Counted from the first letter of the stretch, positions 9,780 through 58,062 are shown. The stretch is DNA of 64,000 nt from Parcubacteria group bacterium M6-OD1-3 (GCA_003056165.1 LSNR01000014.1:70408-134407), one strand, 5' to 3'. Numbers and translations are program-made. Notes: generated from the letters alone by a model not told the origin.

Positions 9780-9866
9780 TTTTGTGTTAAAATAAATTTG
9801 TGCTATAATTTAATGAGTTATCAGGTAATAAAATTTTTCATATAAATAACAATAAAAATAAAAAAA

Positions 9867-10421: not shown

Positions 10422-10469
10422 TAAATATAAAAAGACTTTTTTATAAAAGTCCTAAAAATAATTAAAAAT

Positions 10470-11321
10470 ATGAAATTAAAATTTTTATTGATGCCTATTG
10501 CAGTGATATCTTCTATAATAATTATTATTTGGTATATTTGGCCAATGTGGTTTGATGATAAGCTAGATGATAGTATTACTTCCATAAACAAAAATATTAA
10601 ATCAGTTCAGGCTGAGATTAATAAAATAGAACAAAGAAAAACAAATATTATATCTCTTGACGAATCTTTGCAAAGTCAAGGAGAGGATAAAAACTTAGTA
10701 GAGAATTATTATCCAGAAATACGCAAGGAGGAGGATGTTATAAATAAAATAAATCAGATTGCTTTTTCTACTGGGGTATATATATCTGAAATGAATATTG
10801 ATTATGGTGACGATATTTCTAAAGAAAAAATGAATAAATTCTTAGCTATACCTAAGTATGTGCCTATTCCAGAAATAGTTCCAAAAAATTCAACAAAAAC
10901 TGCGTCAAGTACACCAGCGAGCATATCTGCTAAGAAAGATGTTTTGTCGAAGCTGGTAGCTGTTAATTTGAAGATATATGGAAATTATGATCAAATAAAA
11001 AGTTTTCTTAATACGCTTTACCCGATTGGGTTATTGAGCAATATAGAATCATTTGAAATCAAGAAGGACGCTAATGAGCAGAAGAAGGCGGAAGGTGATA
11101 GTGATAAAAATTCATCAACTTTATTAACTAGTAATATAACCATAAATTTTGGTTATTTAAAAAAAGGAAATTCCAAACTTGCTGAATTATTAGAATCACC
11201 AACAATGGAAGTTAAACAATTCGATTTTAATATTATTGATAAATTTAGAGATTTATTACTTGAGAAATATTCTAATAGTGAAATAGGTGAAACGGGAGAA
11301 TCTAATCCATTTTTTCCATAG
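10470..11321 (+). CDS. pilO: PilO-like pilus assembly protein (TM plus coiled coil)
   Basis: N-terminal TM helix followed by a coiled-coil (IKSVQAEINKIEQRK…), sitting between pilN and pilB. Confidence 0.45.
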   Translation: MKLKFLLMPIAVISSIIIIIWYIWPMWFDDKLDDSITSINKNIKSVQAEINKIEQRKTNIISLDESLQSQGEDKNLVENYYPEIRKEEDVINKINQIAFSTGVYISEMNIDYGDDISKEKMNKFLAIPKYVPIPEIVPKNSTKTASSTPASISAKKDVLSKLVAVNLKIYGNYDQIKSFLNTLYPIGLLSNIESFEIKKDANEQKKAEGDSDKNSSTLLTSNITINFGYLKKGNSKLAELLESPTMEVKQFDFNIIDKFRDLLLEKYSNSEIGETGESNPFFP

Positions 11322-11565
11322 AGAGTAACTTAGTTTGTAGTAATGATTGGTCTACTTTTTGAATGTCAAAAAAATGTTTTATTTGTAATAAAAGTGAAAT
11401 AGACTATGTATTTTCAAAAAATATTTTTTAATTCTCGGAGAGATATATATTAAATTAACATAGTATATTATGTAATATTTTCTAAATCCGTTTTAATTTT
11501 TCTGCGATTCAAAATAATAAATAGTTATAAAAGTAGGGACTTAAATTGGCTATCAATACAAAAAA

Positions 11566-13242: not shown

Positions 13243-13307
13243 TATAAATAATCTGTTGGAATATAATAAATATAATAAATAAATATAATAAATATTTAGA
13301 TAAATAT

Positions 13308-13787
13308 ATGAGTGAAATTAAAGTCAATATTGAAAATGAGGATGAAGACAATAAATCTAATGAATTTAGTAATAGCGATAAAGATAGTAGAAATAATTCG
13401 GAAAAAAATAAAGTAACTATCTTATTAGCAGAAGATGATGAATTCATTAGAGATATTTATAATCGTATTTTTAAGATGAATGGGTATGAAGTTGTGTTAG
13501 CAACCAATGGCTTGGAAGCAATGAAGAAAATGGAAAAAATAACGCCTGATTTAATATTATTGGATGTTATGATGCCTTATCAAAATGGTAAAGAAGTTTT
13601 TAAAAAAATTAAAAAAGATGATCGATTAAAAAATATTCCCGTAGTTTTTTTGACGAATGTTTCCGCCGAAGATGATATAGAAAAAGAATTGCTGGAGCAG
13701 GCCGATAAATATTTAATTAAAGCGCATTTTACGCCCAAAGAAGTTGTGGCGGAAGTTGCTCTTTTGTTGAAAAATAAAAATGAATAA
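13308..13787 (+). CDS. Single-domain response regulator (CheY-like receiver, PilH/PilG-like) with an acidic N-terminal extension
   Basis: VTILLAEDDEFIRD…LILLDVMMPYQNGKEV…KNIPVVFLTNVS matches the receiver-domain signature, with D and K at the expected positions. It lies between pilB and pilT and overlaps the pilT start by 8 nt. Confidence 0.85.
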   Translation: MSEIKVNIENEDEDNKSNEFSNSDKDSRNNSEKNKVTILLAEDDEFIRDIYNRIFKMNGYEVVLATNGLEAMKKMEKITPDLILLDVMMPYQNGKEVFKKIKKDDRLKNIPVVFLTNVSAEDDIEKELLEQADKYLIKAHFTPKEVVAEVALLLKNKNE

Positions 13788-14862
13788 TACATTGCGCGTC
13801 GGACAAAAATTAAAAAGTTATCTGTTAATAGTGGCTCAACAAAATGCTTCGGATTTACATCTAGTTGTAGGTCGACATCCTACCATTAGAGTTGATGGAA
13901 GACTAATTCCCCTTGCTGAAGAAGAGATTTTAACTCCAGAAAAAACGAAAGAATTTAGTAAAATATTGTTAACAGAAAACAATGAGCGAGAAATGTTGGA
14001 AAAGGGACAAATAAATTTTTCTTATGATTTTGAAGGTAAAGCCAGATTTAGAACTAGTGTTTATTTTCAGCAAGGAAACTTGAGTATAGCAATGCGATTG
14101 ATTCAAAATAAAATAAGAACTCTCGAGGAATTGGATGTTACTACGAACTTGTATGATTTTGCAAAATATTCGCAGGGACTTGTTTTAATTACTGGACCAG
14201 TTGGACATGGAAAATCAACAACTTTAGCTGCAATAGTAGAACACATTAATCACAATTATGATAAGCATATACTTACTATCGAAGACCCTATTGAATATGT
14301 CTACCAACAAGATCGTTGTATTATTAACCAGAGAGAGATCGGTCGAGATGTCAAAAGCTTCCCTTCTGCATTAAGGGGTGTCTTCAGAGAAGATGTGAAT
14401 GTTGTTCTTATCGGAGAAATGCGAGACTTAGATACAATTAGTACAACAATGACTGCAGCTGAAACCGGACATTTAATTTTTGCTACATTGCATACTAATA
14501 ATAGCGCACAAACAGTAGACAGAATTGTTGATGTTTTCCCATCACATCAGCAAAATCAAATTAGGTCTCAACTAGCGAATGTTTTATTAGGAGTTTTGTC
14601 TCAAAGGTTGGTTCCGCGGATAGGTGGAGGAAGGGTTCCAGCAGTAGAGATTATGTTAAAAAATCATGCTGTAGGAAATCTCATTAGAGATAATAGATCT
14701 TATCAGATAGATTCAGTGATAGAGACGAGTCTTAAAGAGGGGATGGTTTCTCTAGACAGATCATTGGGGGAATTGGTAAAAAATGGTATAATTTCTATAG
14801 ATGATGCCTTTGCTTACACTGGTAACAAAGAATATTTGAAGACAATAATAAAAAATAAATAA
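13780..14862 (+). CDS. pilT: Twitching-motility (retraction) ATPase PilT
   Basis: Walker A GPVGHGKST and a 360-aa length; PilT/PilU family pattern. Confidence 0.9.
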   Translation: MNNTLRVGQKLKSYLLIVAQQNASDLHLVVGRHPTIRVDGRLIPLAEEEILTPEKTKEFSKILLTENNEREMLEKGQINFSYDFEGKARFRTSVYFQQGNLSIAMRLIQNKIRTLEELDVTTNLYDFAKYSQGLVLITGPVGHGKSTTLAAIVEHINHNYDKHILTIEDPIEYVYQQDRCIINQREIGRDVKSFPSALRGVFREDVNVVLIGEMRDLDTISTTMTAAETGHLIFATLHTNNSAQTVDRIVDVFPSHQQNQIRSQLANVLLGVLSQRLVPRIGGGRVPAVEIMLKNHAVGNLIRDNRSYQIDSVIETSLKEGMVSLDRSLGELVKNGIISIDDAFAYTGNKEYLKTIIKNK

Positions 14863-14897
14863 ATTAATAGATAACGGTAAATAGTTATAATAATATT

Positions 14898-16106
14898 ATG
14901 AGATTCAAATTTAAGGCAAAAGATAAAAAAAATAAAATACAAAGTGGCGTAGTAGATGCAATAAGTAAAGAATTAGCTGTCCAAGTCTTACAAGAAAATG
15001 ATTTGAATGCTATCCTAATTGAAAGAGAAACAGGCGATTCTCCGTTGAGTCAATATTTGCATAAGTCTTGGGAAAAGGTAGGTAAAAAAGATTTGTTAGT
15101 ATTTTTTCGACAATTTCATGCTTTAATATCTTCTAAAGTGCCTGTTGTTTATTCTCTTCGGGCAATTGGTGACCAAACTGAACACAAATATTTAAGTAGT
15201 CTAATTAAGGATATTGCTAATGATGTTGAGGATGGTACAACTTTTTCAGAAGCATTGGGAAGATATCCAGATGTTTTTCCTAAAGTTGTAACTAGCGTTA
15301 TTAATGCTGGAGAGGTTTCTGGTAATTTAGAGGAGGCTATCAAACATGTTGCAGAAAGTACAGAAAAAAATTATCGCATTACTGCTAAGATAAGGGGAGC
15401 GTTGATTTATCCGGCTTTTATTCTGACAGCAGCTTTGATTGTCGGGTTTTTGAGTGTTGTAATTATTGTGCCAAAATTAACTTTGATCATTAAAGATCTG
15501 AATGCAGAAGTTCCATGGTATACGCATATGGTGATAGGCATCGGAGATTTTATGCAGGCTTATTGGTGGGCAGTATTAGTGGTAATTTTTGGTTTTATAA
15601 TTGCTGTTGCTTATTATGTTAAAACAGAAGCTGGTCATAAGGAATGGGATAAAATACAATTAGAATTGCCAATTATTGGAAAATTGTTTCGGTATCTTTA
15701 TTTGACAAAATTTGCTAATAACTTTGTAGTGATTTTAGATGGTGGTGTGCCAATAGTTCAATCACTTAATATCGTTGCAGAAGTAGTTAATAATAGTATT
15801 TATCAAGGAATAATACTTCGTTGTGCTGATGAAGTTAAAACCGGAGGAAATATTAGTACAGTGCTTGCTCAATCAGATTATATTCCTGGCATTGTTACGA
15901 AAATGGTAATAGTAGGTGAGAAAACTGGAAAAATTAGTGAATCATTAGGTAGTGTGGGAAATTTTTATGAACAAGAAATGGATGAGATGATTAAAAATTT
16001 ATCGGTTTTAATTGAGCCAGTTTTAATTGTTGGATTGGGATTAGGTGTGGCGTTTTTAGCATTTTCGATTATTTTGCCGATTTATAATGTAGTGCAGAAT
16101 TTCTAA
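14898..16106 (+). CDS. pilC: Type IV pilus inner-membrane platform protein PilC/GspF
   Basis: 402 aa with two GspF repeats and three TM segments. Confidence 0.88.
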   Translation: MRFKFKAKDKKNKIQSGVVDAISKELAVQVLQENDLNAILIERETGDSPLSQYLHKSWEKVGKKDLLVFFRQFHALISSKVPVVYSLRAIGDQTEHKYLSSLIKDIANDVEDGTTFSEALGRYPDVFPKVVTSVINAGEVSGNLEEAIKHVAESTEKNYRITAKIRGALIYPAFILTAALIVGFLSVVIIVPKLTLIIKDLNAEVPWYTHMVIGIGDFMQAYWWAVLVVIFGFIIAVAYYVKTEAGHKEWDKIQLELPIIGKLFRYLYLTKFANNFVVILDGGVPIVQSLNIVAEVVNNSIYQGIILRCADEVKTGGNISTVLAQSDYIPGIVTKMVIVGEKTGKISESLGSVGNFYEQEMDEMIKNLSVLIEPVLIVGLGLGVAFLAFSIILPIYNVVQNF

Positions 16107-26229: not shown

Positions 26230-26263
26230 TGTGTATCTTTAAAGATATCTTTAAAGATACACA
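26230..26263. promoter_or_regulatory. 34-bp perfect palindrome (TGTGTATCTTTAAAGAT|ATCTTTAAAGATACACA); candidate operator and/or trxB terminator
   Basis: Exact dyad symmetry, read directly. It lies 11 bp upstream of the AbrB-like gene start. Confidence 0.5.
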
Positions 26264-26471: not shown

Positions 26472-26879
26472 ATGGATGCAATACAATTATCGAAGAAAAT
26501 GATTGAAATAAAAACGGACAAAGCTCCGCAGGCGGTTGGTCCATATTCACAAGCGATTGAATCCAACGGTCTTATCTTTGTTTCCGGACAAATAGCTATT
26601 GATTATAAGACGGGATTATTTGAAGAAAATAACGATATTGAAAAGCAATCAGAAATGGTTTTAAATAATATAAAAAATATTCTTGAAAAATGTAAGCTGA
26701 ATTTGGATGATGTTGTTAAAGTGGAAATTTTCTTGAGTAATATAAAAGATTTTAAAATGGTCAATAAAATTTATGGAAAATATTTTGTAAATAATCCTAA
26801 ACCCGCTCGGCAAACTGTGGAAGTTTCAAAATTGCCACTGAATGCTAAAATTGAAATATCATGTATAGCAAAAAAATAA
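26472..26879 (+). CDS. ridA: RidA/YjgF-family reactive enamine/imine deaminase
   Basis: KAPQAVGPYSQAIESNGLIFVSGQIAID… is the RidA signature, and it sits directly upstream of ilvA. Start taken at the Met of MDAIQLSKK. Confidence 0.8.
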   Translation: MDAIQLSKKMIEIKTDKAPQAVGPYSQAIESNGLIFVSGQIAIDYKTGLFEENNDIEKQSEMVLNNIKNILEKCKLNLDDVVKVEIFLSNIKDFKMVNKIYGKYFVNNPKPARQTVEVSKLPLNAKIEISCIAKK

Positions 26880-28090
26880 ATGCTCAAGAAATAGAAAAAG
26901 CTAAAGAAAAATTTTCTGAAATTGTCAAAGAAACCCCCTTACAATATTCTGCCAGATTATCAAAAAAATATGGATGTAGTTTTTTCCTTAAGAGAGAAGA
27001 TTTGCAAGTTATTAGATCTTATAAGATAAGAGGTGCTTTTAATGCTATTAGTAATTTGGAAGAAAAAAATAGGGTTAAAGGTGTGGTGTGCGCCAGTGCT
27101 GGAAATCATGCTCAAGGTGTGGCGGTTGCATGTAAATTTTTTAAGGCAACTGGCTTTATATTTATGCCGAAAACAACACCATTACAAAAAATTGAAAGAA
27201 CAAAAAAATTCGGAGGAAGATATGTGCAAGTTATTTTAGAGGGAGATAGCTTTGATGATGCTCAAAAGAAAGCTTTAGAATTTTCAAGCAGAAAAAAAAT
27301 AAGCTATATCGCTCCATTTGACAATGAAAATACAATTATAGGAAATGGAACTATTGGTTTAGAAATTTTGAAGCAAATGGGTGATAAAAAAATAGATGCG
27401 GTAGTTGTGCCAATTGGTGGCGGTGGTTTGATAAGTGGTATTGGTAGTTATATTAAAGAAAAAAGTCCAAACACTAAAATAATTGGTGTTGAAGCAAATG
27501 GGAGCGCTAGTATGAAGGAAGCTTTCAAAAAAGGAAGACCAGTAGAGTTAAAAAAAGTTGAGACGTTTGCTGATGGAGTGGCCGTGAAAAAAATTGGTGA
27601 TATAAATTTTAAAATTGCCAAAAAGGTTGTTGATGAGCTTATGACTGTCCCTGAAAATAGAGTTTGTGCAACTATTTTGAAATTACTTAAGGAAGAAGGA
27701 ATAATTTTGGAGCCAGCGGGGGCTTTATCTATAAATGCCGTTAGAGATTTTTCAAAGAAAGAATTAAAAAATAAAAATATAGTTTGTATTTTGAGCGGTG
27801 GAAATCTTGATTTTAACAGATTACCAAATATTAAAGAACGCTATTTGAGTTATAAAGGATTGAAAAAATATTTGATAGTTAATTTCCCACAAAGACCAAA
27901 AGCTTTGAGAGAATTTGTAGATTGTCTTGGCGATGAGGATAACGTTGTGGATATTTATTATTCAGAAGCTGAAGGGCAATGGGGAGAGGCAAGGATTAAC
28001 ATTCAAACAACTAAAAAGAAAAACTTTGAAAAACTATATAAAAAATTAAATAAAGCTAATATTAAATTTAGAGAAAATGGTGGTTTTTAA
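26861..28090 (+). CDS. ilvA: Threonine ammonia-lyase (biosynthetic type with a single C-terminal ACT-like domain)
   Basis: PLP lysine motif SYKIRGAF and a glycine-rich loop GGGGL. Length 409 aa. Confidence 0.85.
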   Translation: MYSKKINAQEIEKAKEKFSEIVKETPLQYSARLSKKYGCSFFLKREDLQVIRSYKIRGAFNAISNLEEKNRVKGVVCASAGNHAQGVAVACKFFKATGFIFMPKTTPLQKIERTKKFGGRYVQVILEGDSFDDAQKKALEFSSRKKISYIAPFDNENTIIGNGTIGLEILKQMGDKKIDAVVVPIGGGGLISGIGSYIKEKSPNTKIIGVEANGSASMKEAFKKGRPVELKKVETFADGVAVKKIGDINFKIAKKVVDELMTVPENRVCATILKLLKEEGIILEPAGALSINAVRDFSKKELKNKNIVCILSGGNLDFNRLPNIKERYLSYKGLKKYLIVNFPQRPKALREFVDCLGDEDNVVDIYYSEAEGQWGEARINIQTTKKKNFEKLYKKLNKANIKFRENGGF

Positions 28091-29401: not shown

Positions 29402-30799
29402 ATGCTATTAAAGCAAATAAAAATAAATAATAGAATCTGGCAGAGGAATAAAAAGGGAACGTCTTTGATTGAAGCCCTAGTTTTAATATTTGTTTTTTCG
29501 GTGGCAGTACTCTCATTTTACTCTGTATTTAGTTTAAGTGTACGCTATATTACGCAGTCAAAAGATAGAACGGTGGCTATATCATTAGCGAATGAAAGAA
29601 TGGAATTGTTGCGTAATTTGAGTTATGATGATGTGGCTATTATTGGTGGTATTCCAAATGGAAATGTTAATCCAGATGAAACAGTTACTGTTGGGAATAA
29701 AAGCTTTCATATTATTACTGATATTAAATATTATGATGACCCCGATGATGGAATATTTGGAGGTTCTCCTAGTGATATAATCCCGACTGACTACAAAACA
29801 GCATTGATTGTTGTTGCCTGGGGTGGAGAAAGCTCTTCGGAAAAAGTGTCATTGTCATCACGATTTGTACCTCCGGGAGTAGAAACTAATGTTGGCGGAG
29901 GGACATTGTCATTAAATGCAATCGATTTTTCTGGCACTCCAGTTGCTAATGTTTCGGTAAATTTGGTTAATACCAGCCTTTCTCCAAATGTTAATTATAA
30001 TACTAATATGGACTCCAATGGAAATATTTTATTACAAGGAGTTCCTGCAGATAGTAATCAGAACTATCAGATAACACTTTCTAAAAGCGGTTACGAAACT
30101 GTAAAAACATATCCACCAGTGGGAGCGGGATTTATTCCAAAAGATACACATATGTCAATTGTGGAAGGTGTTTTGAATAGTGAAACTTTGGAAATAAATT
30201 TGCTGGCAACCTTAAAAATAAAAAGTGTTGACCCTTTTGGTATGGAAATTAGTAATGCAACTTTTGATTTGACAGGGGGTAGAAGACTGGATGATGGAAC
30301 GGCTACCGCTGTATATAGTTATAATGATTCGGAGTCAACTAATAGTGATGGAGATTTTTCGTTAGATGATGAAAGTCCAGGTGAGTATATAGTTGATATT
30401 ACTGGAACCACTGATACGGATTATACCTTTTGGAAGCTTAGTCCTGGAACTGATTCTGACAATAAAAAAGTTAATTTATCTCCGGGAGCTACACAAAGTT
30501 CAGATATGATTTTAATGGATAAAAATTTAGATTCGGCATTTATTACTGCTACAAATGGAGCTACAGGAGATTTCGTAGAAGGAGCTCATATAAACCTAAA
30601 GAATAATACACTTAGCTATGATGTCACTCTAGATACTGATAAATATGGAACGGTTTATTTCCCCGAAACGCTTGATGTTCCTTTACAAAATGGGGAAACA
30701 TATGATTTAAAAATTACCGCTGATGGTTATGATGATTTAACTGATACGATTACAATCAATAAATATACCAATAAAGATGTAACATTAACTGCACAATAA
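29402..30799 (+). CDS. Large pseudopilin/minor pilin (465 aa) with a prepilin-type N-terminus
   Basis: KKG|TSLIEALVLIFVFSVAVL has E at +5 and is followed by a large extracellular domain. Confidence 0.6.
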   Translation: MLLKQIKINNRIWQRNKKGTSLIEALVLIFVFSVAVLSFYSVFSLSVRYITQSKDRTVAISLANERMELLRNLSYDDVAIIGGIPNGNVNPDETVTVGNKSFHIITDIKYYDDPDDGIFGGSPSDIIPTDYKTALIVVAWGGESSSEKVSLSSRFVPPGVETNVGGGTLSLNAIDFSGTPVANVSVNLVNTSLSPNVNYNTNMDSNGNILLQGVPADSNQNYQITLSKSGYETVKTYPPVGAGFIPKDTHMSIVEGVLNSETLEINLLATLKIKSVDPFGMEISNATFDLTGGRRLDDGTATAVYSYNDSESTNSDGDFSLDDESPGEYIVDITGTTDTDYTFWKLSPGTDSDNKKVNLSPGATQSSDMILMDKNLDSAFITATNGATGDFVEGAHINLKNNTLSYDVTLDTDKYGTVYFPETLDVPLQNGETYDLKITADGYDDLTDTITINKYTNKDVTLTAQ

Positions 30800-30813
30800 T
30801 CTTATTTTGCTTT

Positions 30814-31434
30814 GTGAATAAATTAAATAAAAATAAAATTTTGACTAGAAAGGGTATGAGCTTCGTGGAGATGATTATTGCTATAGGAATATTTTCCTTA
30901 ATGATGATTGGAATTACTATGTTTTTCATTAAGTCTTGGAATAATTATAATTATGTTATGGATACAAATTCAAGTTCCATTTCTGCAAGTCAGGGGATTA
31001 GTAAGATTGTTAATAATATTCGTAAGGCAAGAAGTGCTGATAATGGAGCTTATCCTATTAAATCTGTAAACGATTTTGATTTAGTTATTTTTAGTGATTA
31101 TGATAGAGATGGAGTTACTGAGAAAATGCACTATTATTTAAATAGTGGAAATTTGATGCTTGGAATAAGTGAGCCAAATGGCGTGCCACCAACTTATCCA
31201 AACGGAGATACAACAACAAGCACGGTCGTACTCAATGTAATAAATGATGCTTCTCATCCGATTTTCTATTATTATGATAGTACTAATAATGTCATTAATA
31301 ATCCAACTGCAAATCTAGCAAGTATTAGAATGATTAAAATTAGCTTAACAGTTCAAGGAAATTCAGCTAATGATGTTAACACAGAATCTTTTGCATCGTT
31401 ACGCAACTTAAATGAAAATGATACTATACAATAA
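30814..31434 (+). CDS. Pseudopilin/minor pilin
   Basis: TRKG|MSFVEMIIAIGIFSLMM prepilin motif. Confidence 0.65.
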   Translation: MNKLNKNKILTRKGMSFVEMIIAIGIFSLMMIGITMFFIKSWNNYNYVMDTNSSSISASQGISKIVNNIRKARSADNGAYPIKSVNDFDLVIFSDYDRDGVTEKMHYYLNSGNLMLGISEPNGVPPTYPNGDTTTSTVVLNVINDASHPIFYYYDSTNNVINNPTANLASIRMIKISLTVQGNSANDVNTESFASLRNLNENDTIQ

Positions 31435-31440
31435 AAAATT

Positions 31441-32937
31441 ATGAAATATTATTCTAAAAATAAAAAAGGTTCAATGTTAGCATATGCTCTCATCGTGATT
31501 TCAATTGTCAGTATTCTTTTAACATCCTCGATGAAAATAGTCGTGTCGCATATGAAGTATGGGCTAACAAGAGCTTCACAGGAAGAATCTTTGCAGATTG
31601 CTGAAGCAGGAATTTATTTTTATCGTTGGTACTTGGCACATAAGGTTGAGGGTTTAACAAAAAAACAAGTCCGAGTATTTTGGTCATCGGGAAATGCTTA
31701 TGGAGTGGATAGTGCTTATGAGGATGATTTCAATGGAGTAGGAAAATATAGTATTACTGTTACGCCACCAGAAGCAAACTCGACTATTGTTGTAGTTAAA
31801 TCTGTTGGTTGGAGTTATAAATATCCAAATATCAAAAGGACAGTACAAGTTCGTTTTCGACAACCTTCCTGGAGTGAATTTTCTGTTTTATGCGATTCCA
31901 ATATTCGTTTTGGAGCGGGAACTGAAGTCAATGGACCAATTCATAGTAATGGCGGAATTAGATTTGACGGTTTAGCTCATAATATTATAAGTAGTTCTGT
32001 GCAAAGTTATAATGACACAGATTCTGACGCTTGCAATGGAAATAATGAATTCGGTGTGCACACTTGTTTGCCTACTGCTGATCCAGCTTACCCAAATCCT
32101 GTCCCGAGTAGACCAGATGTTTTTGAGGCCGGAAGAACATTTCCAACTGTGGAAAAAGATTTTGATGGGGTTTTAGCTGATATTGCCGATATGAAAAATG
32201 AAGCCGGATGTTCTAATGTAGGTAGCTATTGTAGTAGTGATCATATTGTTGCTACAAACGGGATTTATTTTAATAATAGTGGTGTCGGTAGACATATTCA
32301 ATTGCAAGCTGATGGGAATTTTAGGATACGAACTATTCAATCGTATAATACTATCTTTAACAATATTGTTAATTATTCTGGTTCATGGCAAACATTTGCC
32401 ATCCCTGATGGGGGAATAATATTCGTAGAGGATAATGTTTGGGTAGAAGGAAAAATTAATAATAAAAGTGTAACAATTGTTTCGGCAGATCTTTCTGGAG
32501 GCTCAGATAGAAATATTTTTTTGCAAAATGATTTAGAATACACTAATTATGACGGGAGTGATATAATAGGATTGATTGCACAAGGTGATGTTGAAGTTAT
32601 TAAAGATAGTGAAAATGATTTGAGAATTGATGCCGCACTATTAGCTCAAAACGGGAGAGTGGGGCGAGAATATTATTCGCTGGTGTCATGGGGCTGGTTT
32701 GGCTGGGGAACATGTCCTTGTAATTGGTCATGGTGTGAAGATCATAAAGATACCATTACAGTTTATGGATCAATTGCTACTAAAAAAAGATATGGTTTTG
32801 CTTGGGGCGATGGTTGTCCAAGAAGCACTGGCTACACTAATAGAATTTTAATATATGATAATAATTTGCTATATTATCCTCCACCATATTTTCCGACAGG
32901 AACAAATTACGCCATTGATCTTTGGAATGAATTATAA
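31441..32937 (+). CDS. Large PilX-like pseudopilin (498 aa)
   Basis: KKG|SMLAYALIVISIVSILL hydrophobic N-terminus with no E at +5, and a large Cys-containing extracellular domain. Confidence 0.5.
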   Translation: MKYYSKNKKGSMLAYALIVISIVSILLTSSMKIVVSHMKYGLTRASQEESLQIAEAGIYFYRWYLAHKVEGLTKKQVRVFWSSGNAYGVDSAYEDDFNGVGKYSITVTPPEANSTIVVVKSVGWSYKYPNIKRTVQVRFRQPSWSEFSVLCDSNIRFGAGTEVNGPIHSNGGIRFDGLAHNIISSSVQSYNDTDSDACNGNNEFGVHTCLPTADPAYPNPVPSRPDVFEAGRTFPTVEKDFDGVLADIADMKNEAGCSNVGSYCSSDHIVATNGIYFNNSGVGRHIQLQADGNFRIRTIQSYNTIFNNIVNYSGSWQTFAIPDGGIIFVEDNVWVEGKINNKSVTIVSADLSGGSDRNIFLQNDLEYTNYDGSDIIGLIAQGDVEVIKDSENDLRIDAALLAQNGRVGREYYSLVSWGWFGWGTCPCNWSWCEDHKDTITVYGSIATKKRYGFAWGDGCPRSTGYTNRILIYDNNLLYYPPPYFPTGTNYAIDLWNEL

Positions 32938-32955
32938 AAATAAAAAATATTAAAT

Positions 32956-34020
32956 ATGAGTTTTTTAAGTAAAAAAGTAGTAAGTTTTTCTGATGATGTT
33001 ATTGGATTGGACATAGGTGCAACATCTGTAAAAGCTATCCATCTAGAAGATGGAGTAATTAAAAATTATGGATTTAGAGACATCCCCAATAGTGTCATTG
33101 TAAATGGAAAAATTATTAATGAAAAAAAATTGTCTGAAATAGTGAATATTGTTATCAATGAAGCAAAACCTAACAAAATGAAAACTAAAAAAGTTATTTG
33201 TTCAATTTCAGAGTCAAAATCATTTTTGCGCTTAATTTCTGTGCCAACAATGAATCAAGATGAATTAAGTGAAGCTGTAAAATGGGAAATAGAAGCAAAT
33301 ATTCCACTTTCGGTAGATCAAGTATATTATGATTGGAAAGTTATTGATGATATTTTTCCTAAAGATGACGGAAGGGTACATATTCTAGTTTTAGCAGCTG
33401 CTAAAAAAGTTGTTAAGCAAGTTTTAAATATCGTTGATAATGCTGGACTTGAGACTATTGGAATTGAATCTGAATCTACTGCATTGGTGCGAGCTTTGTC
33501 GGATGATAAGAATAAAAAAACAGTTTTAATTATTGAGTTGGGAAGAAATAAAACAACTTTTGTTTTTGCTATTAAAAATGTTCCTTGTTTTACCTCAAGC
33601 ATACCAGTTTCTGAACAAATGATTGTGAGTCAAATAGCTAAAAAGTTTAATGTTTCTAATGAAAAGGCAAGAAAACTTGAAGAGAAAAATGGAATAAATT
33701 CATTTTTTGAAGATGAATATCTTTTTTCTTCGATAGAGCCAGCCCTAAAAAATCTTGTTAGTGAAATAGAAAAAACTATAGATTTCTATCTAGAAGGTTT
33801 GAGATATTCAGAGGCAGTTGATGAAATAATTGTTTGTGGAAAAATGTCAAAAGAAAAAAATGTTATTACATATTTGTCAAAAAAATTAAAGAGAGAAATT
33901 AAGGTTGGAAATATATTAGCTGGGCTAAATTCTGATAAAAAAGTATTACCAATTATAAAAAGAGAGGTTGCGATACAATACGCAACAGCAATTGGACTAA
34001 CATTAGATTGCAATGAATAA
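32956..34020 (+). CDS. PilM paralog (second copy)
   Basis: VIGLDIGATSVKAIHLEDG actin-like N-terminus. Length 354 aa. Confidence 0.75.
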   Translation: MSFLSKKVVSFSDDVIGLDIGATSVKAIHLEDGVIKNYGFRDIPNSVIVNGKIINEKKLSEIVNIVINEAKPNKMKTKKVICSISESKSFLRLISVPTMNQDELSEAVKWEIEANIPLSVDQVYYDWKVIDDIFPKDDGRVHILVLAAAKKVVKQVLNIVDNAGLETIGIESESTALVRALSDDKNKKTVLIIELGRNKTTFVFAIKNVPCFTSSIPVSEQMIVSQIAKKFNVSNEKARKLEEKNGINSFFEDEYLFSSIEPALKNLVSEIEKTIDFYLEGLRYSEAVDEIIVCGKMSKEKNVITYLSKKLKREIKVGNILAGLNSDKKVLPIIKREVAIQYATAIGLTLDCNE

Positions 34021-34052
34021 ATATTAAAATTTTATTATAGATAAAAAGTAAA

Positions 34053-34613
34053 ATGAAAATAAAATTAAATCTTTTGCCCGAGAAAAGAGTAAAAGAGATG
34101 AAAAAAAAGAATATCTTGAGATTTGTAATCTGGCAAGAAATAGTGGTTATTTTTATGGTGGGAATGTTTCTTGTTATGATTAAGAGTGCTGATGTTGTAA
34201 TAAATTTGCGATTAAGTAGCTTAGATCAACAACTTTCATCCCTGAAGCTAGGAAGTGATTTTAAAAAAATAGATAAATATGAAAGTAATTTTCGCGGTGT
34301 AAATAAAAAACTTTTTTTAGTTGAGAAAGTGCAACGAGATAATATTGATTGGTTGAATATTTTTAATGATATAAATGACGCCGTTCCTGATGGTATAACA
34401 ATTGATTCGCTAGAGAATAACAATCATACAGTATCGATGACGGGAATAGCAACAACAAGGGATCGTTTAATAGTATTAAAAGGCAACCTTGATAAAATAG
34501 ACTGTTTTACAAAAGTTAATGTACCATTAAATGATATTGTTTTAAAAAAAAATATTGATTTTCAAATAGATTTTAAAGTAATCAATAAATGTTTATCAGA
34601 TTATGAAAAATAA
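34053..34613 (+). CDS. PilN-like paralog
   Basis: Basic N-terminus plus one TM helix (VVIFMVGMFLVMI), positioned after the PilM paralog. Confidence 0.5.
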   Translation: MKIKLNLLPEKRVKEMKKKNILRFVIWQEIVVIFMVGMFLVMIKSADVVINLRLSSLDQQLSSLKLGSDFKKIDKYESNFRGVNKKLFLVEKVQRDNIDWLNIFNDINDAVPDGITIDSLENNNHTVSMTGIATTRDRLIVLKGNLDKIDCFTKVNVPLNDIVLKKNIDFQIDFKVINKCLSDYEK

Positions 34614-35295
34614 AAATTTATTTATACAATATAAAATATATTTTATTGGAGGTGGATTGCTAATTTTAATCGTGGCTATGGTTTTTTTAGTCGTTAAACC
34701 AGCATTTAACAAGCTCAATAATGATAGCGATGCCGTACAAAAAAAAGCTTTAGATATGCAAATTGAGAAAAGTAAATTATCCAAATTATCGGAGCTTAGG
34801 CAAAAATTTAGCATTATTGAATCCGAGCAGGATAAATTAGATATTTTATTTACTGATGATAAAATTGTTGATTTAGTCCAAGAATTGGAATATGTAGCTG
34901 ACAAAACGAATAATGATATTTCGATTAAAATTGAAGAATTAGTCAAGAAGAAAAAGAATGGGCAGTTAAAAAATACGCTAGAAGATGATTCACTTACTAA
35001 TTTTAAAGATGAAGATTATTTTGAAATGGAAATAAGTTTAACAGGAAATTACGAAAATTTATTACGATTTATCCATAAACTCGATAATATGCCATATTAT
35101 AATAGTTTGTTAAAATTCAATATTACTGTTACCGAAATTGATGTTAAAAATGATAAAAAAACAATTATGCCAAATAATATTAGTATTAATTTATTCAACG
35201 GAAACAAAATTAACAATAGCAGTCAAGATGTCCCAGAAAATAAGAAAAAAGTCTTACAGTCTAAATTAAGTGTAATTTTTTATTTAAATAAATGA
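34603..35295 (+). CDS. PilO-like paralog
   Basis: TM helix (IGGGLLILIVAMVFLVV) followed by a coiled coil. Confidence 0.45.
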   Translation: MKNKNLFIQYKIYFIGGGLLILIVAMVFLVVKPAFNKLNNDSDAVQKKALDMQIEKSKLSKLSELRQKFSIIESEQDKLDILFTDDKIVDLVQELEYVADKTNNDISIKIEELVKKKKNGQLKNTLEDDSLTNFKDEDYFEMEISLTGNYENLLRFIHKLDNMPYYNSLLKFNITVTEIDVKNDKKTIMPNNISINLFNGNKINNSSQDVPENKKKVLQSKLSVIFYLNK

Positions 35296-35633
35296 GTACT
35301 CAAAAAACAAAAAATAATATAGCTAGTCTTTTCAAATTAGCTAAATTGAAAATTACAAAATCATTGTGGAATTATTTGTTTAGAAAATCTGGATCGATCG
35401 TGATGACTTTGTTTATTGTAATTTCAATTGTTAGCGGTTTTCTTATCTATAAATATCTTTATTCTTCTGGATGGAACGACACCAAAAAACATAACTATTT
35501 AAAAGAGGCGAGCAAAAATGATGTTGACTTTAATATGAAAAAATTCGAAAAAGTTATTAAAAATATAGAAAAGAGAACTAATAATTATAAAAAAACAGAG
35601 CCATCGGAAGTAAAAGATATTTTTCGGTTTTAA
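35292..35633 (+). CDS. Small single-TM protein, last gene of the second pilus-like operon
   Basis: 113 aa with one TM helix; translationally coupled to the upstream gene. Confidence 0.4.
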   Translation: MSTQKTKNNIASLFKLAKLKITKSLWNYLFRKSGSIVMTLFIVISIVSGFLIYKYLYSSGWNDTKKHNYLKEASKNDVDFNMKKFEKVIKNIEKRTNNYKKTEPSEVKDIFRF

Positions 35634-35670: not shown

Positions 35671-35685
35671 TTGCCTATATTGATG

Positions 35686-35757
35686 TGCCCTCGCCAGGAC
35701 TCGAACCTGGAACGCTTGGTCCGAAGCCAAGTGTGATATCCATTTCACCACGGGGGC
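35686..35757 (-). tRNA. tRNA-Arg (anticodon UCG)
   Basis: The reverse complement folds as a cloverleaf with anticodon arm CTTGG-CTTCGGA-CCAAG and a GTTCGAGT T-loop. No encoded CCA. Confidence 0.8.
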
Positions 35758-35764
35758 GTTTTCT

Positions 35765-35838
35765 TGGGCGACTACTGGGAATTGAACCCAGGTTCTCGGT
35801 ACCACAAACCGATGTCCTACCATTGGACGATAGCCGCC
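35765..35838 (-). tRNA. tRNA-His (anticodon GUG) with an encoded G-1
   Basis: The reverse complement reads G-GCGGCTA…TCGGT-TTGTGGT-ACCGA…GGGTTCAATTCCC…TAGTCGC-C. G-1 pairs with C73. Confidence 0.8.
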
Positions 35839-36060
35839 ATAAATAATATCGTACCTTAAAAGATTATCATAAATAATTAAAAATATCAACACCATATGAT
35901 ATTCGGTATCCTTTTTTACAGAATTGCAGTAATTTTGTTTACAAAAAAATATTTATTTGATATAATTATTGTGAAGAAAATTTATTTAAAAATTTTGTTA
36001 AACTGAGTACTTAAATTTAAAAAGGCAATTTTAGATAAATTATAAAAATTATAAAATCCT

Positions 36061-36263
36061 TTGACGATAGCTATCACTATTGGACTGCCGTTTGTGTAGG
36101 GGATATGAGAAGAAATTTGCAATAGCAAAAAATAGAACTCATCGGGTATGCCCGTAACAGCTGTTAACGAGAGCTTTTTATTGGTTATGTGTCAAAAAGC
36201 TAAATTAAGGTGGTACCACGATTTTATTCGTCCTTAAACATTTTGTGTTTAAGGTTTTTTTGT
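36061..36263 (+). promoter_or_regulatory. T-box leader (tRNA-sensing riboswitch) with terminator, upstream of ileS
   Basis: AAAUUAAGGUGGUACCACG (36201-36220) matches the T-box consensus AAUUAGGGUGGNACCGCG. It is followed by the hairpin CCTTAAACA-ttttg-TGTTTAAGG and a T7 run at 36228-36263. Confidence 0.6.
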
Positions 36264-36287
36264 ATAAAAATTTAAAAGATTAAAGCT

Positions 36288-39200
36288 ATGTTTAAAAAAG
36301 TAGACTCAAGAAAAAAATATTCCGAAATGGAGGAGGAAATTTTAAAGTTTTGGGAAGAAAATAAAATTTTTGAAAAGTCAGTGGAAAACAGAGATAAAAA
36401 CAACACTTATGTTTTTTACGATGGGCCACCGTTTGCAACAGGGCTACCTCATTATGGACATATTGTCGGAACGGTTTTAAAAGATGTTATTCCAAGATAT
36501 TGGACAATGAAAGGAAAGCGAGTAGAGCGTCGTTGGGGTTGGGATTGTCACGGTTTGCCAATTGAAAATATTGTTGAAAAAGAACTAGGAAGCAAAACAA
36601 AAAAAGAAATTGAGGAATTGGGCGTAGATAAATTTAATAAACTTTGTCGAAGCAAAGTATTGGAATATGCTGGCGAGTGGGAAAAAATTATTCCACGCTT
36701 AGGTCGTTGGGTTGATATGAAAAATGCTTATCGGACAATGGATAAGGATTTTATGGAAAGTGTTTGGTGGACTTTTAAGCAGTTATGGGATAAAGATTTA
36801 ATTTATTATAGTTATCGTTCAATGCATATTTGTCCACGATGCGAAACAACATTGTCACAGTCAGAAGTTAGCGAGGGATACAAAGATGTGAAGGATTTGT
36901 CGGTGATTGCGAAGTTTGAGATTGAATCTGCAAGCAATAATAATGACATAAAAACCTATATTCTAGCATGGACTACAACTCCTTGGACACTTCCAGGAAA
37001 TGTTGCCTTGGCGGTGGGAAAAGATATTGATTATGTAAAAATTGAGAATAAAAGTGCAAGCTCTGCTGGAGCGGTAAAACATGCACCTGGAGAAAAGCTA
37101 ACTGACAAAATGCAGTTACCAGGGTTTTATATTATGTCTAAAAAAGCATTTTTGAATAATTTCGGTAATATTTGGGGTCTTATTATCGGAATTGATGCAG
37201 ATATGTCGTTGGTATTTTCAGAAAAGAAAACTGAGCAGGAAATTTTTAAAAAGTATAATATTGAGGAGCTAAAAGGTGCTGATTTAGTTGAATTAAAAAA
37301 ATATAAACCGCTTTGGGATATTTATGCTGATGATAAAAAATTGGAAAATAGAGAGAATGGATGGAAAATTTATGATGCTGATTTTGTGACGACCGACGAA
37401 GGAACTGGTGTGGTTCATATTGCTCCGGCGTTTGGTGAAGATGATATGAAGTTAGGCAAAGAGAAAAATTTACCATTTGTTCAGCATGTTGGAATGAACG
37501 GTGTGGTTGATAAAAAAGTAGAAGCAATCGGCGGTCTGAATGTTAAACCAATTGATAATCCACAAGCAACTGATATTGAAGTAATTAAATATTTAGCAAG
37601 CAAAGAAACATTGTTTCACAAAGAAAAATTTGAACACAGTTATCCACATTGCTGGCGTTGTGATACTCCACTTATCAATTATGCCACTGGTTCATGGTTT
37701 GTTGCTGTTACAAAAATTAAGGAACAACTATTGAAGGATGCTAAAGGTATTAACTGGACACCAGAACATATTAAAAAAGGTCGTTTTGGGAAATGGTTGG
37801 AAGGTGCGCGTGATTGGTCAATTTCTCGTCAACGATTTTGGGCAAGCGTAATGCCAATCTGGGTTTGCAATAAATGTGATCACAAAAAAGTTTTTGGTAA
37901 TGTTGTTGATTTAGAAAAAATTAGTGGAGAAAAAATTGATGATTTACACAAGCATAGCGTGGACAAAATTACTTTTAAATGTGATTCGCCAACTGGCGAA
38001 TGTAATGGAACAATGCATCGTGTGCCAGATGTTTTGGACACTTGGTTTGATAGCGGTTCAATGCCTTATGGTCAAACTCATTATCCTTTTGAAAATAAAG
38101 AGAAATTTGAAAAAAGCTTTCCAGCGGATTTTATTGCTGAAGGAATTGATCAAACACGAGCTTGGTTTTATTATCTACATATTATTGCTGGCGGAATTTT
38201 TAATCAAAAAGCTTTTAAAAATGTAATTGTTAATGGAATTGTTTTAGCGGAAGACGGACAAAAAATGGCCAAGAAGTTGCAGAATTATCCAGATCCGATG
38301 AGTATGGTAAATGAATATGGAGCAGATTCTTTGCGATTTTATTTAGCTCAATCGCCAGTAGTTAATGCCAATGATTTAAATTTCAATAAAAAAGATTTGG
38401 AAGAAATTTCTCGGGGAACTTTTCGAATGTTATGGCAGAGTTATAGCTTTTTTGTGATGTATGCCAATATTGATAAGTATAAAGTAGAAAATAATGAGTA
38501 TAAGGTAAGTGAAAATATTTTAGATAAGTGGCTTGTTTCTGAATTACATCAACTAATCAAAAATGTCGATGAACGATTAGAGAATTATGAGTTAATGCAA
38601 GCAACTAGATTATTTGCTCCATTTATTGATAATCTTTCTAATTGGTATATTCGTCGTAGTCGGAAAAGATTTTGGAAAAGTGAAAATGATAATGATAAAA
38701 ATAAGGCTTATGAAACTTTGCATTATGTGCTAGTAGAATTATCTAAAGTTATTGCTCCTTTTGCGCCGTTTATTGCTGACGAAATTTATCGTAATTTGGT
38801 TAGTGGTGCTCAGCCAGCAGTTCGCAGTGAAAACAAGGATATTTCTGTTCATTTGCAAGATTATCCTGTAGCTGATAAAAATTTGATTGATAAAGAGTTA
38901 AACAAAAAAATGAAAAAAATACGAGAAATTATTACTGTTGGTTTACAATTGCGAGCTAGAAATCAAGTAAAAGTTAGACAACCTTTGTCACAATTAAAGA
39001 TTGCAACAACACAGACTAATGCAAACTTAACGCGGACTGACACAAGCGAGCTACTAAATGATGAGTTTACTGAAATTATTAAAGAAGAATTGAATATTAA
39101 AAGTGTGGTGCAAGAGAATTTTAAATTTGATGATGTGGCAAAAGATATGGAGGAAGTTGGTGATATTAAAATTTTATTAGATACGGAAATTACCCCAGAG

Positions 39201-39467
39201 TTAAAATTGGAAGGAGAGGCAAGGGAGGTTATTCGGGCTATTCAGCAGATGCGTAAAGAAGCAGATTATCAACTTGACGACCGCATAAAAATATGCTATA
39301 GTGGAATGTCTGAGGTTTTTGAAAATTATAGCGACCTAGTCGCTAAAGAAACTTTAGCAATTGAAATAGAACCTTTACAAAATAATTTAGATCAAAAATT
39401 CGATTTGAAAAAAGAGTTTGAATTTGATAAAGAAAACTTAAGTTTGGCAATAAAAATCGCAGAATAA
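36288..39467 (+). CDS. ileS: Isoleucyl-tRNA synthetase
   Basis: HIGH motif (PPFATGLPHYGHI), KMSKS-like KMAKKL, a CP1 editing domain and Zn motifs. Length 1059 aa. Confidence 0.93.
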   Translation: MFKKVDSRKKYSEMEEEILKFWEENKIFEKSVENRDKNNTYVFYDGPPFATGLPHYGHIVGTVLKDVIPRYWTMKGKRVERRWGWDCHGLPIENIVEKELGSKTKKEIEELGVDKFNKLCRSKVLEYAGEWEKIIPRLGRWVDMKNAYRTMDKDFMESVWWTFKQLWDKDLIYYSYRSMHICPRCETTLSQSEVSEGYKDVKDLSVIAKFEIESASNNNDIKTYILAWTTTPWTLPGNVALAVGKDIDYVKIENKSASSAGAVKHAPGEKLTDKMQLPGFYIMSKKAFLNNFGNIWGLIIGIDADMSLVFSEKKTEQEIFKKYNIEELKGADLVELKKYKPLWDIYADDKKLENRENGWKIYDADFVTTDEGTGVVHIAPAFGEDDMKLGKEKNLPFVQHVGMNGVVDKKVEAIGGLNVKPIDNPQATDIEVIKYLASKETLFHKEKFEHSYPHCWRCDTPLINYATGSWFVAVTKIKEQLLKDAKGINWTPEHIKKGRFGKWLEGARDWSISRQRFWASVMPIWVCNKCDHKKVFGNVVDLEKISGEKIDDLHKHSVDKITFKCDSPTGECNGTMHRVPDVLDTWFDSGSMPYGQTHYPFENKEKFEKSFPADFIAEGIDQTRAWFYYLHIIAGGIFNQKAFKNVIVNGIVLAEDGQKMAKKLQNYPDPMSMVNEYGADSLRFYLAQSPVVNANDLNFNKKDLEEISRGTFRMLWQSYSFFVMYANIDKYKVENNEYKVSENILDKWLVSELHQLIKNVDERLENYELMQATRLFAPFIDNLSNWYIRRSRKRFWKSENDNDKNKAYETLHYVLVELSKVIAPFAPFIADEIYRNLVSGAQPAVRSENKDISVHLQDYPVADKNLIDKELNKKMKKIREIITVGLQLRARNQVKVRQPLSQLKIATTQTNANLTRTDTSELLNDEFTEIIKEELNIKSVVQENFKFDDVAKDMEEVGDIKILLDTEITPELKLEGEAREVIRAIQQMRKEADYQLDDRIKICYSGMSEVFENYSDLVAKETLAIEIEPLQNNLDQKFDLKKEFEFDKENLSLAIKIAE

Positions 39468-39576: not shown

Positions 39577-39966
39577 ATGAAATATATTGTGATATGGATG
39601 ATGATGTATGTCATCATTCAGATGTTTTTGTTTTCTGCTGATAAAATTTCTCCGTCTGGTGGAGACAAAGTTAAAAGGGAGAAAAAAATGACGGAAATTT
39701 ACCTAGAAATGTGGGCAAGTACAGTAGCTTTGTTTTTGGCGACTGAAGTTGTCCGCAATTTTTCTTTTGTGAAACTGAAAAGTTTCGCGAAAAAAATTTG
39801 GAATGATTTCTTGTGGTTTATTGAAAATCACGAGGAGTGTCCGGAATGTGGAAGTCAGGAGTACTCAATTGTAGTACTACCAGAACTTCCACATCCGATG
39901 TATTGGGATAGCAGTTATATTCCAATGGCACGAAAAAAATGTAAAAAATGCGGAACGATTTATTGA
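39577..39966 (+). CDS. Hypothetical protein with a C-terminal CxxC…CxxC zinc ribbon
   Basis: Strong SD (GAGGAGGGG), then a hydrophobic N-terminus and ECPECG…CKKCG. Confidence 0.45.
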   Translation: MKYIVIWMMMYVIIQMFLFSADKISPSGGDKVKREKKMTEIYLEMWASTVALFLATEVVRNFSFVKLKSFAKKIWNDFLWFIENHEECPECGSQEYSIVVLPELPHPMYWDSSYIPMARKKCKKCGTIY

Positions 39967-40129
39967 GGCTAAATCGTTCCGCAAAAAACCGAGGACAACC
40001 ATTGTGTTGTACTCGGTTTTAAATTTGTTTAATAAATACTCCGGTTTTTTTACCTCGAAAATTAGAAATCTTGCAATGCTTGTCTGGTGGGCAGGAATGA
40101 CTTTCTAAAACAGTCTATTGATTAGCCTG

Positions 40130-57373: not shown

Positions 57374-57462
57374 ATACCAAAGGATATTGACTTTTATTTA
57401 AGAATCGTTATAATAAATTCTGTTGTCTTTTATTTTATTTAAATAAAATAAAATAAAAATTT

Positions 57463-57479
57463 GCGCCGTTAGCTCAGTT
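57463..57479 (+). other. 17-nt duplicate of the tRNA-Lys 5' end (GCGCCGTTAGCTCAGTT); a tRNA fragment or scar
   Basis: Identical to the first 17 nt of the tRNA at 57561. It is followed by unrelated sequence with a CCCGCC…GGCGG hairpin. Confidence 0.4.
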
Positions 57480-57560
57480 CCCGCCAAAAGGAAAGGCGGA
57501 CAGGGTCCAAGAAACAGCCATGAATTATGTTGGTTGATTAAAATTTAAAAATATGTGCTT

Positions 57561-57633
57561 GCGCCGTTAGCTCAGTTGGTAGAGCAACAGCCTTTTAAGC
57601 TGATGGTCGGGGGTTCAAATCCCTCACGGCGCA
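57561..57633 (+). tRNA. tRNA-Lys (anticodon UUU)
   Basis: GCGCCGT-TA-GCTC-AGTTGGTA-GAGC-A-ACAGC-CTTTTAA-GCTGA-TGGTC-GGGGG-TTCAAAT-CCCTC-ACGGCGC-A. Confidence 0.85.
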
Positions 57634-57634
57634 C

Positions 57635-58014
57635 AACTAAATTTAGCTAAAACTAAGAAAGATGTTAAAGGGTTCATCTGGCATTCGCCAGATGCCCAGC
57701 GAATGCAGGGCAAATCCCTCACGGCGCACAACTAAATTTAGCTAAAACTAAGAAAGATGTTAAAGGGTTCATCTGGCATTCGCCAGATGCCCAGCGAATG
57801 CAGGGCAAATCCCTCACGGCGCACAACTAAATTTAGCTAAAACTAAGAAAGATGTTAAAGGGTTCATCTGGCATTCGCCAGATGCCCAGCGAATGCAGGG
57901 CAAATCCCTCACGGCGCACAACTAAATTTAGCTAAAACTAAGAAAGATGTTAAAGGGTTCATCTGGCATTCGCCAGATGCCCAGCGAATGCAGGGCAAAT
58001 CCCTCACGGCGCAC
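57635..58014 (+). repeat. Four identical tandem copies of a 95-bp unit, each ending with the last ~19 nt of tRNA-Lys (AAATCCCTCACGGCGCAC)
   Basis: Copies start at 57635, 57730, 57825 and 57920. Each unit is aactaaatttagctaaaactaagaaagatgttaaagggttcatctggcattcgccagatgcccagcgaatgcagggcaaatccctcacggcgcac and contains the internal hairpin CATCTGGC-attc-GCCAGATG. Confidence 0.9.
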
Positions 58015-58062
58015 AACTAAAACTTCTTACAATTAATAACTAGTTAATAATCAGTAGTTAAC

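Follow-up and report, generated by a model that had tools for sequence, protein, structure and literature searches.

A predicted isoleucine T-box attenuator of unusual and apparently undescribed configuration, apparently widespread in CPR bacteria

The window analyzed here, a contiguous stretch of 64,000 nucleotides from Parcubacteria group bacterium M6-OD1-3, very probably contains an isoleucine-specific T-box riboswitch at positions 36056-36261 (+), which would control the downstream ileS gene by transcription attenuation. The leader is a genuine T-box as judged by its sequence, by covariation and by the homology of its design, from which its function is predicted. It seems to be an Ile T-box attenuator of an unusual configuration, which is apparently undescribed and apparently widespread in CPR. 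A sequence-only reading of this DNA had proposed a T-box at this place; its observation was confirmed and the T-box interpretation is supported by the present analysis, but neither the ultrashort Stem I nor the CPR-wide family had been foreseen.

Architecture of the ileS leader and its genomic setting

The predicted target gene is the ORF at 36288-39467 (+), whose product of 1059 aa matches TIGR00392 with 902 bits against a cut-off of 621, so that the leader is indeed located upstream of ileS as had been claimed. The encoded protein is a type-2 IleRS, and its nearest solved structures are 8c8v/8c8u and 1ile, whereas the S. aureus structure 1ffy is a much weaker match. The top named relatives of the protein stem from Candidatus Moranbacteria/Moraniibacteriota and the GC content amounts to about 32%, which identifies the host as a member of the CPR/Patescibacteria and bears out the earlier impression of an AT-rich, CPR-like genome.

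Stem I (36056-36104, +) is ultrashort with a length of 49 nt and forms a three-way junction, and its P1 helix, K-turn and Specifier stem all covary in the family. The basal helix P1 (AUCCU/GGGAU) pairs 36056-60 with 36100-04, which moves the beginning of the element from the previously proposed position 36061 to 36056 and defines the span of the leader given above. The adjoining K-turn-like motif is composed of a UUU bulge (36060-62) that overlaps the final wobble position of P1, of G63 and A64 on the 5' strand, and of G83 and A84 on the 3' strand. An extra hairpin (36085-36099) between the GA of the 3' strand and P1 turns the base of Stem I into the three-way junction. A hairpin is present at the same site in at least 12 relatives with unrelated sequences, and Stem I comprises 33 nt in the simplest relatives. 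The thermodynamic MFE of Stem I alone favors a different structure (-10.8 versus -8.5 kcal/mol for the three-way fold); the proposed fold is thus based on comparison and not on thermodynamics.

The Specifier hairpin (36065-36082, +) consists of a 6-bp stem (CGAUAG/CUAUUG) and the apical hexaloop CUAUCA (36071-36076). The sequence of the stem varies in nearly all relatives, but its pairing is retained. The loop exposes the predicted Specifier codon AUC for isoleucine (36073-36075, +), followed by the conserved purine A36076. The same triplet, which is complementary to the anticodon GAU of tRNA-Ile, recurs among the full-length family members: 44 of 44 carry it in an apical loop of 5-8 nt, and in 39 the next base is an A. 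The inspection of Stem I for a Specifier loop with AUC or AUU, which had been recommended as a check, accordingly ended with AUC. The sequence AAUCA in L127 and L138 was rejected as a Specifier because it lies within Stem II and the true Specifier is found upstream. One relative (L093:917-1010) has its Specifier in an internal loop (UGAAUAUCA), with a short distal helix (CCGCC-UAAG-GGCGG) retained above it in Stem I. This Stem I looks intermediate between the canonical and the ultrashort type, and its distal helix hints at the existence of intermediates within CPR.

Stem II (36105-36142, +) is built from a base helix (AUGAG/CUCAU) and a distal helix (UUUGC/GCAAA) with the loop AAUA. Both helices covary; they are paired to 97.7% and 90.3%, respectively, and 10 of 10 pairs show changes on both sides. 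The S-turn-like internal loop between the strands reads AAGAAA / AAAUAGAA, and its elements AGAA and A.UAGA are invariant in an alignment of 18 sequences. The subsequent Stem IIA/B region (36143-36171, +) contains helix IIA (CGGG/CCCG, 36143-46 with 36151-54), which is supported by covariation, an F-box-like CCCGUAA and the downstream strand of IIB. The IIB pseudoknot of the window itself is weak, with two G-C pairs between the loop GC at 36150-51 and the GC at 36160-61. Since the register of IIB shifts between sequences, the test of fixed columns was replaced by a permutation of cognate versus non-cognate partners, and across the family the IIA loop proved more complementary to its own downstream strand than to permuted ones in 2000 of 2000 permutations. 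Examples of compensatory changes are ACGGAA/UUCCGU, GAUGU/ACAUC and AGCAU/AUGCU.

Stem III (36172-36201, +) forms an 8-bp helix (AGCUUUUU/AAAAAGCU) with a 14-nt loop. It is present with variable length in most relatives and missing in one subgroup (L029, L031, L057, L101, L105, L108, L115, L117 and L132), where GAUGGUACC replaces GGUGGUACC; most leaders of this subgroup escape detection by Rfam even at E<=0.01. In eight other leaders (L002, L003, L007, L046, L055, L098, L124 and L140) Stem III carries AT-rich insertions of about 60-110 nt, and in two of them (L098, L140) antiterminator helix A2 has large insertions as well.

The T-box sequence and the antiterminator occupy positions 36202-36237 (+) and are documented by the RF00230 match and by helix covariation. 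The string AAAUUAAGGUGGUACCACG, which the sequence-only reading had quoted as a T-box match, is present at 36202-36220, and its 14-nt core AAGGUGGUACCACG (36207-36220) agrees with the published consensus AGGGUGGNACCGCG at 12 of 14 positions. Both mismatches are helical positions that still form an A-U pair with the partner base. Helix A1 (UUAAGG/CCUUAA, 36205-10 with 36232-37) and helix A2 (ACGA/UCGU, 36218-21 with 36228-31) both covary, and the 7-nt bulge UGGUACC between them (36211-17) is near-invariant in the family. The UGGU of this bulge predicts a cognate tRNA with A73. The relative L059 encodes a tRNA-Ile(GAU) with the end ...AUCGCCC-A-CCA (A73-CCA) just downstream of ileS; no tRNA-Ile gene is present within the 64-kb window.

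The leader is preceded by divergently oriented genes for tRNA-Arg(UCG) and tRNA-His(GUG) at 35685-35837 (-), and the gap of 218 nt between them and P1 must contain the promoters for both directions. A full-length threonine ammonia-lyase (IlvA, 26861-28090; 537 bits, cut-off 421) is encoded about 8 kb upstream of the leader. This first enzyme of isoleucine synthesis is present in a reduced CPR genome, and no further ilv genes were detected among the scanned ORFs of the window. Two type IV pilus clusters are located at 8664-16106 (PilM, PilB/GspE, PilT, PilC) and 29402-35633 (PilV-like, second PilM). They share their strand with nearly all genes of the window, and the GC skew is strongly positive throughout. 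Perfect or near-perfect palindromes at gene ends (26230-26263 and 39949-39983) have stems of 15 bp and 14 bp, and the latter has the orientation of a terminator for the minus strand despite neighboring genes on the plus strand. Finally, in the region 57450-58020, units of 95 nt are repeated perfectly in tandem (57616-57995) beside tRNA-Lys(UUU) (57561-57634). Each unit contains GGGTTCA and AAATCCC with a hairpin-bearing insert of 35 nt between them, which resembles a T-arm that carries an insertion, and terminates in the tRNA's own 3' end AAATCCCTCACGGCGCA. A fragment from the 5' side of this tRNA (GCGCCGTTAGCTCAGTT) is found at 57462-57479. The array and the fragment may represent att-site scars of an integrating element, or the outcome of slippage.

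Detection and covariation of the family

The default Rfam scan of the 64-kb window reported three tRNAs only and no T-box. In E-value mode, the T-box model RF00230 matched positions 36052-36238 over model positions 1-219 with 51.3 bits, which corresponds to E=2e-10 locally and to E=2.7e-8 for the whole 64-kb window. The score stays below the curated gathering score of 93 bits, mostly because Stem I is shortened to 49 nt: 52 of 87 interior positions of the RF00230 Stem I are deleted, and the 87 model positions are spanned by 35 nt. This shortfall explains why default Rfam annotation is silent on the leader. We dropped the default null result as a refutation of the T-box, given the significant full-length match in E-value mode and the evidence from the family. 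The cmsearch with RF00230, which had been suggested as a check, thus returned a significant hit that nevertheless remains under the curated threshold.

The leader was compared with 160 ileS loci, namely 80 from species-representative genomes and 80 from metagenome contigs, and the T-box core was seen upstream of ileS in many of them. When 18 leaders were aligned with MAFFT, those with an inserted extra hairpin had the 3' side of their Specifier stem in the wrong place. The covariance model R1 was therefore seeded with 11 simpler leaders, all from ileS loci of other Patescibacteria and with the window excluded. R1 misaligns Stem I in sequences with an extra hairpin, and Stem I was for this reason assessed sequence by sequence. 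The model recognizes the window with 91.5 bits (E=3.8e-21, filters off) and matches 47 of the 160 loci, 20 of 80 in the genomes and 27 of 80 in the metagenomes, always upstream of ileS. No match was obtained in the non-CPR loci retrieved with the same protein query (Gemmatimonadota, Latescibacterota, Spirochaetota, Cyanobacteriota, Bacteroidota), and 19 CPR ileS loci without an R1 match contain no canonical T-box either. Three motif matches (L062, L066, L075:1173) were discarded as GC-rich coding sequence. The search for further T-boxes upstream of aminoacyl-tRNA synthetase genes, as advised before, could be carried out at proS (40292), the only other such gene of the window, and detected none with Rfam at E<=0.1 or with unfiltered R1. 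None of the 39 family members tested reaches the Rfam gathering score (best 69.8 bits), and 6 of 20 members are missed by Rfam even at E<=0.01.

Covariation was evaluated for 45 aligned R1 matches, 44 of which are distinct. Within these 45 members, 93.0% of the cells form standard pairs, compared with 63.3% after column shuffling and 34-47% if the partners are slid by 1-3 columns, and both partners vary in 29 of 32 pairs. The covariation score amounts to 0.766 versus 0.222 in shuffled and at most 0.165 in slid alignments. The alignment was fitted to the model, so that the pairing is somewhat inflated, but the margin is large and the pair types are diverse. Covariation supports P1, the Specifier stem, both parts of Stem II, Stem IIA, and the antiterminator helices A1 and A2. 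The MFE of the whole leader is unexceptional (z = -1.49). Several CPR lineages, represented by 44 distinct sequences, have kept the truncated architecture with compensatory changes, which is indicative of purifying selection on the structure.

Predicted transcriptional output and alternative explanations

The antiterminator is followed by a predicted intrinsic terminator (36232-36261, +), which consists of a 10-bp hairpin (CCUUAAACAU-UUU-GUGUUUAAGG; 36232-36254, -9.2 kcal/mol) and a directly adjoining U7 tract (36255-36261). The earlier placement of a terminator hairpin plus U-tract at 36228-36263 was close to this result. Antiterminator (36205-36237) and terminator hairpin overlap by 6 nt, because the 3' strand of A1 (36232-36237) is at the same time part of the 5' arm of the terminator. 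The common strand provides what a tRNA-dependent switch requires and supports the antiterminator/terminator arrangement for tRNA-Ile that had been predicted for this site. The MFE structure of 36203-36262 is the terminator fold with -13.9 kcal/mol, compared with -6.5 kcal/mol for the antiterminator alone, and the more stable terminator fold argues for termination as the default state, as in classical T-boxes. Within 60 nt past the antiterminator, 38 of 41 members have a run of at least six T, at a median offset of 16 nt, compared with 9 of 41 control segments (60 nt upstream of the leaders), and a hairpin ending at the T-run was found automatically in 35 of 45 members. Sites that combine a hairpin with a T-run number 24 in this genome region versus 8.9+-2.8 expected, an enrichment of about 2.7-fold. 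In three relatives (L117, L031, L029) the 3' arm of the terminator pairs with the bulge side of the T-box instead of the 3' strand of the antiterminator.

Transcription may start from a tentative candidate promoter at 35938-35966 (+), which consists of TTTACA, a 17-nt spacer and TGn-TATAAT (11 of 12 matches, extended -10). It is the best promoter-like site between positions 26001 and 46000 of the window and is located about 90 nt before P1, which would imply a leader of about 83 nt ahead of P1. The relatives exhibit a promoter-like site about 15-30 nt before P1, a distance at which the window has weak matches only, such as the tentative TATAAA at 36041-36046. In eleven relatives (L002, L003, L046, L055, L081, L098, L124, L135, L138, L140, L143) a small unrelated ORF is located between the T-box terminator and ileS. 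Examples encode products of 137-140 aa, of about 180 aa, of about 122 aa (four-helix-bundle-like by eye) and of 367 aa (membrane-like). The T-box would control these ORFs as well, or they may be insertions at this site.

By homology with characterized T-boxes, the anticodon of tRNA-Ile(GAU) would pair with AUC in the groove of Stem I and Stem II. The free 3' ACCA of an uncharged tRNA would pair with UGGU and stabilize the weaker antiterminator, whereupon RNA polymerase would read into ileS. With charged tRNA, or with none, the more stable terminator would form and transcripts would end at about 36255-36261.

A tRNA-Ile-binding T-box might also act by a different output, either through Rho- or RNase-dependent control of leader stability or with the aid of a protein cofactor, for instance a K-turn binder of the L7Ae type, that makes up for the lack of contact to the tRNA elbow. 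This scenario would accommodate the lack of an IDTM (interdigitated double T-loop), which runs against the kinetic requirement proposed for co-transcriptional sensing. K-turn proteins have been proposed as helpers in the literature, and the terminators of L039 and L057 barely overlap the 3' strand of the antiterminator. The terminator of the window, however, exhibits the classical overlapping topology together with U7, and no candidate cofactor gene was found adjoining the leader, so that we regard a different output as improbable.

A translational T-box comparable to the ultrashort ileS leaders of Actinobacteria, with 36232-36254 as a sequestrator that blocks ribosome binding, is very improbable. 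The decoding domain of the leader is of the type that has been described as translational, and the relative L149 has no clear U-tract and a start codon 30 nt past the antiterminator. In the window, on the other hand, 33 nt separate the end of the hairpin from the AUG, and neither the hairpin nor the 26-nt spacer GUAUAAAAAUUUAAAAGAUUAAAGCU (36262-36287) between the U-tract and ileS harbors a Shine-Dalgarno-like sequence. A Shine-Dalgarno core motif precedes only 4 of the 56 ORFs of the window (background 10.8%), and ileS is not among them. Ahead of the ORF starts in the window there is A-rich sequence instead, for example AAUAAAAAAU; together with the near-absence of Shine-Dalgarno motifs, this implies that initiation is independent of them. 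A sequestrator moreover offers no reason for the conservation of U-tracts in the family, and the U7 of the window directly follows the hairpin. That the host has no Shine-Dalgarno sequence to sequester suggests why the output is a terminator here. A chance resemblance or a decayed, non-functional relic is scarcely credible despite the score under the Rfam threshold, the truncated Stem I and the weak IIB pairing of the window, given E-values from 2.7e-8 to 4e-21, the intactness of all functional elements and the recurrence of the same truncated design with compensatory changes in 44 distinct CPR sequences. Transcription attenuation by tRNA-Ile is thus the preferred reading.

Relationship to known T-boxes and implications for CPR

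The closest counterpart of the leader is the ultrashort or Class III T-box of ileS from M. tuberculosis, M. smegmatis and Nocardia farcinica. By definition, Stem I of this class is short and has no double T-loop for binding the tRNA elbow, and the Specifier occupies an apical loop of five or six nucleotides. Stem II and a K-turn are required, ileS is the only target, and published accounts treat the class as translational and Actinobacterial. The leader of the window corresponds to it in the ileS target and the predicted ligand tRNA-Ile, in a short Stem I without IDTM that displays AUC plus a purine in the hexaloop CUAUCA on a 6-bp stem, and in the succession of basal K-turn, Stem II S-turn, IIA/B pseudoknot, Stem III and T-box bulge, the three-dimensional motifs among these (UUU-GA...GA; AAGAAA/AAAUAGAA; CGGG..CCCGUAA) being predictions from the sequence. 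The restriction to ileS is another common trait, since 47 of 47 R1 matches are located before this gene, some of them with an intervening small ORF. The likeness was judged from published descriptions and is compatible both with homology and with a convergent loss of distal Stem I. The differences are a hairpin with U-tract in place of a Shine-Dalgarno sequestrator, a host from the Patescibacteria with almost no Shine-Dalgarno motifs, and a third hairpin at the K-turn, which the window shares with about a dozen relatives and which creates a three-way junction. The abstract of Sherwood et al. from 2015 is said to predict translational control for "many", not all, Actinobacterial leaders. Ultrashort-type leaders with terminators may thus already have been noted in earlier work.

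With Class I T-boxes such as B. subtilis tyrS, the leader has in common the T-box sequence, the antiterminator and terminator with a shared strand, the U-tract, the K-turn, the Stem II S-turn, the F-box/IIA-B region and Stem III, and RF00230 aligns from end to end. It differs in the length of Stem I (49 versus about 100 nt) and in the position of the Specifier in an apical instead of an internal loop. Unlike Class I and Class II, it has no AG bulge/distal loop platform (interdigitated double T-loop) for the tRNA elbow. The Class II glyQS T-box of B. subtilis is likewise a transcriptional T-box with reduced architecture, but the reduction is the reverse, as glyQS keeps a long Stem I with IDTM and lacks Stem II. 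The intermediate-Stem-I ileS T-box of Actinomyces odontolyticus (Class IV) agrees with the leader in the absence of an IDTM, the ileS target and the dependence on Stem II, whereas the Specifier of the window is located in an apical loop; the relative L093 resembles this intermediate form. In its predicted structure, the leader of the window is a member of the ultrashort type by all architectural criteria but not by that of output, which is predicted to be of the canonical transcriptional type.

In the literature searched, we found no relevant work that links a T-box or a riboswitch to CPR, Patescibacteria, Parcubacteria or Saccharibacteria. A perspective on Patescibacteria from 2024 mentions riboswitches only as possible synthetic tools and describes gene regulation in this group as virtually unknown. 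The transcriptional entries of the T-box database TBDB were taken from Rfam-type sources, and its translational-Ile model was run on Actinobacteria only. In view of this scope and of scores below the Rfam threshold, the family is likely to be unannotated and to have been missed by standard annotation. We tentatively propose that CPR carry a widespread, unannotated class of T-boxes that combines an ultrashort, platform-less ileS decoding module with an intrinsic terminator, a generalization that is plausible but considerably less certain than the assignment of the single leader.

According to a review from 2020, transcriptional T-boxes generally need a long Stem I with a tRNA-elbow platform, because the tRNA has to be captured rapidly before RNA polymerase reaches the terminator, whereas a short Stem I accompanies translational control, which has no such time limit. 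The CPR family appears to contradict this generalization. If the proposed class is real, co-transcriptional sensing of tRNA would be possible without the double T-loop of Stem I, and a family that combines the short module with a terminator would represent a natural counter-example by which the kinetic argument becomes directly testable.

The ileS T-box would then extend past Firmicutes, Actinobacteria, Chloroflexi and Deinococcus into CPR, a distribution that fits an origin prior to the divergence of these lineages. To our knowledge, all phyla with known ileS T-boxes belong to the Terrabacteria. The occurrence of an ileS T-box in CPR thus bears on the branching position of this group, and a horizontal transfer of the leader together with the type-2 ileS is also possible.

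For the biology of the organisms, the element would represent the first native riboswitch-type nutrient sensor described for CPR symbionts, and the leader may provide a native, protein-independent control element for genetic tools. It predicts that organisms without most amino-acid biosynthesis monitor the charging of their tRNA-Ile and adjust IleRS to it.
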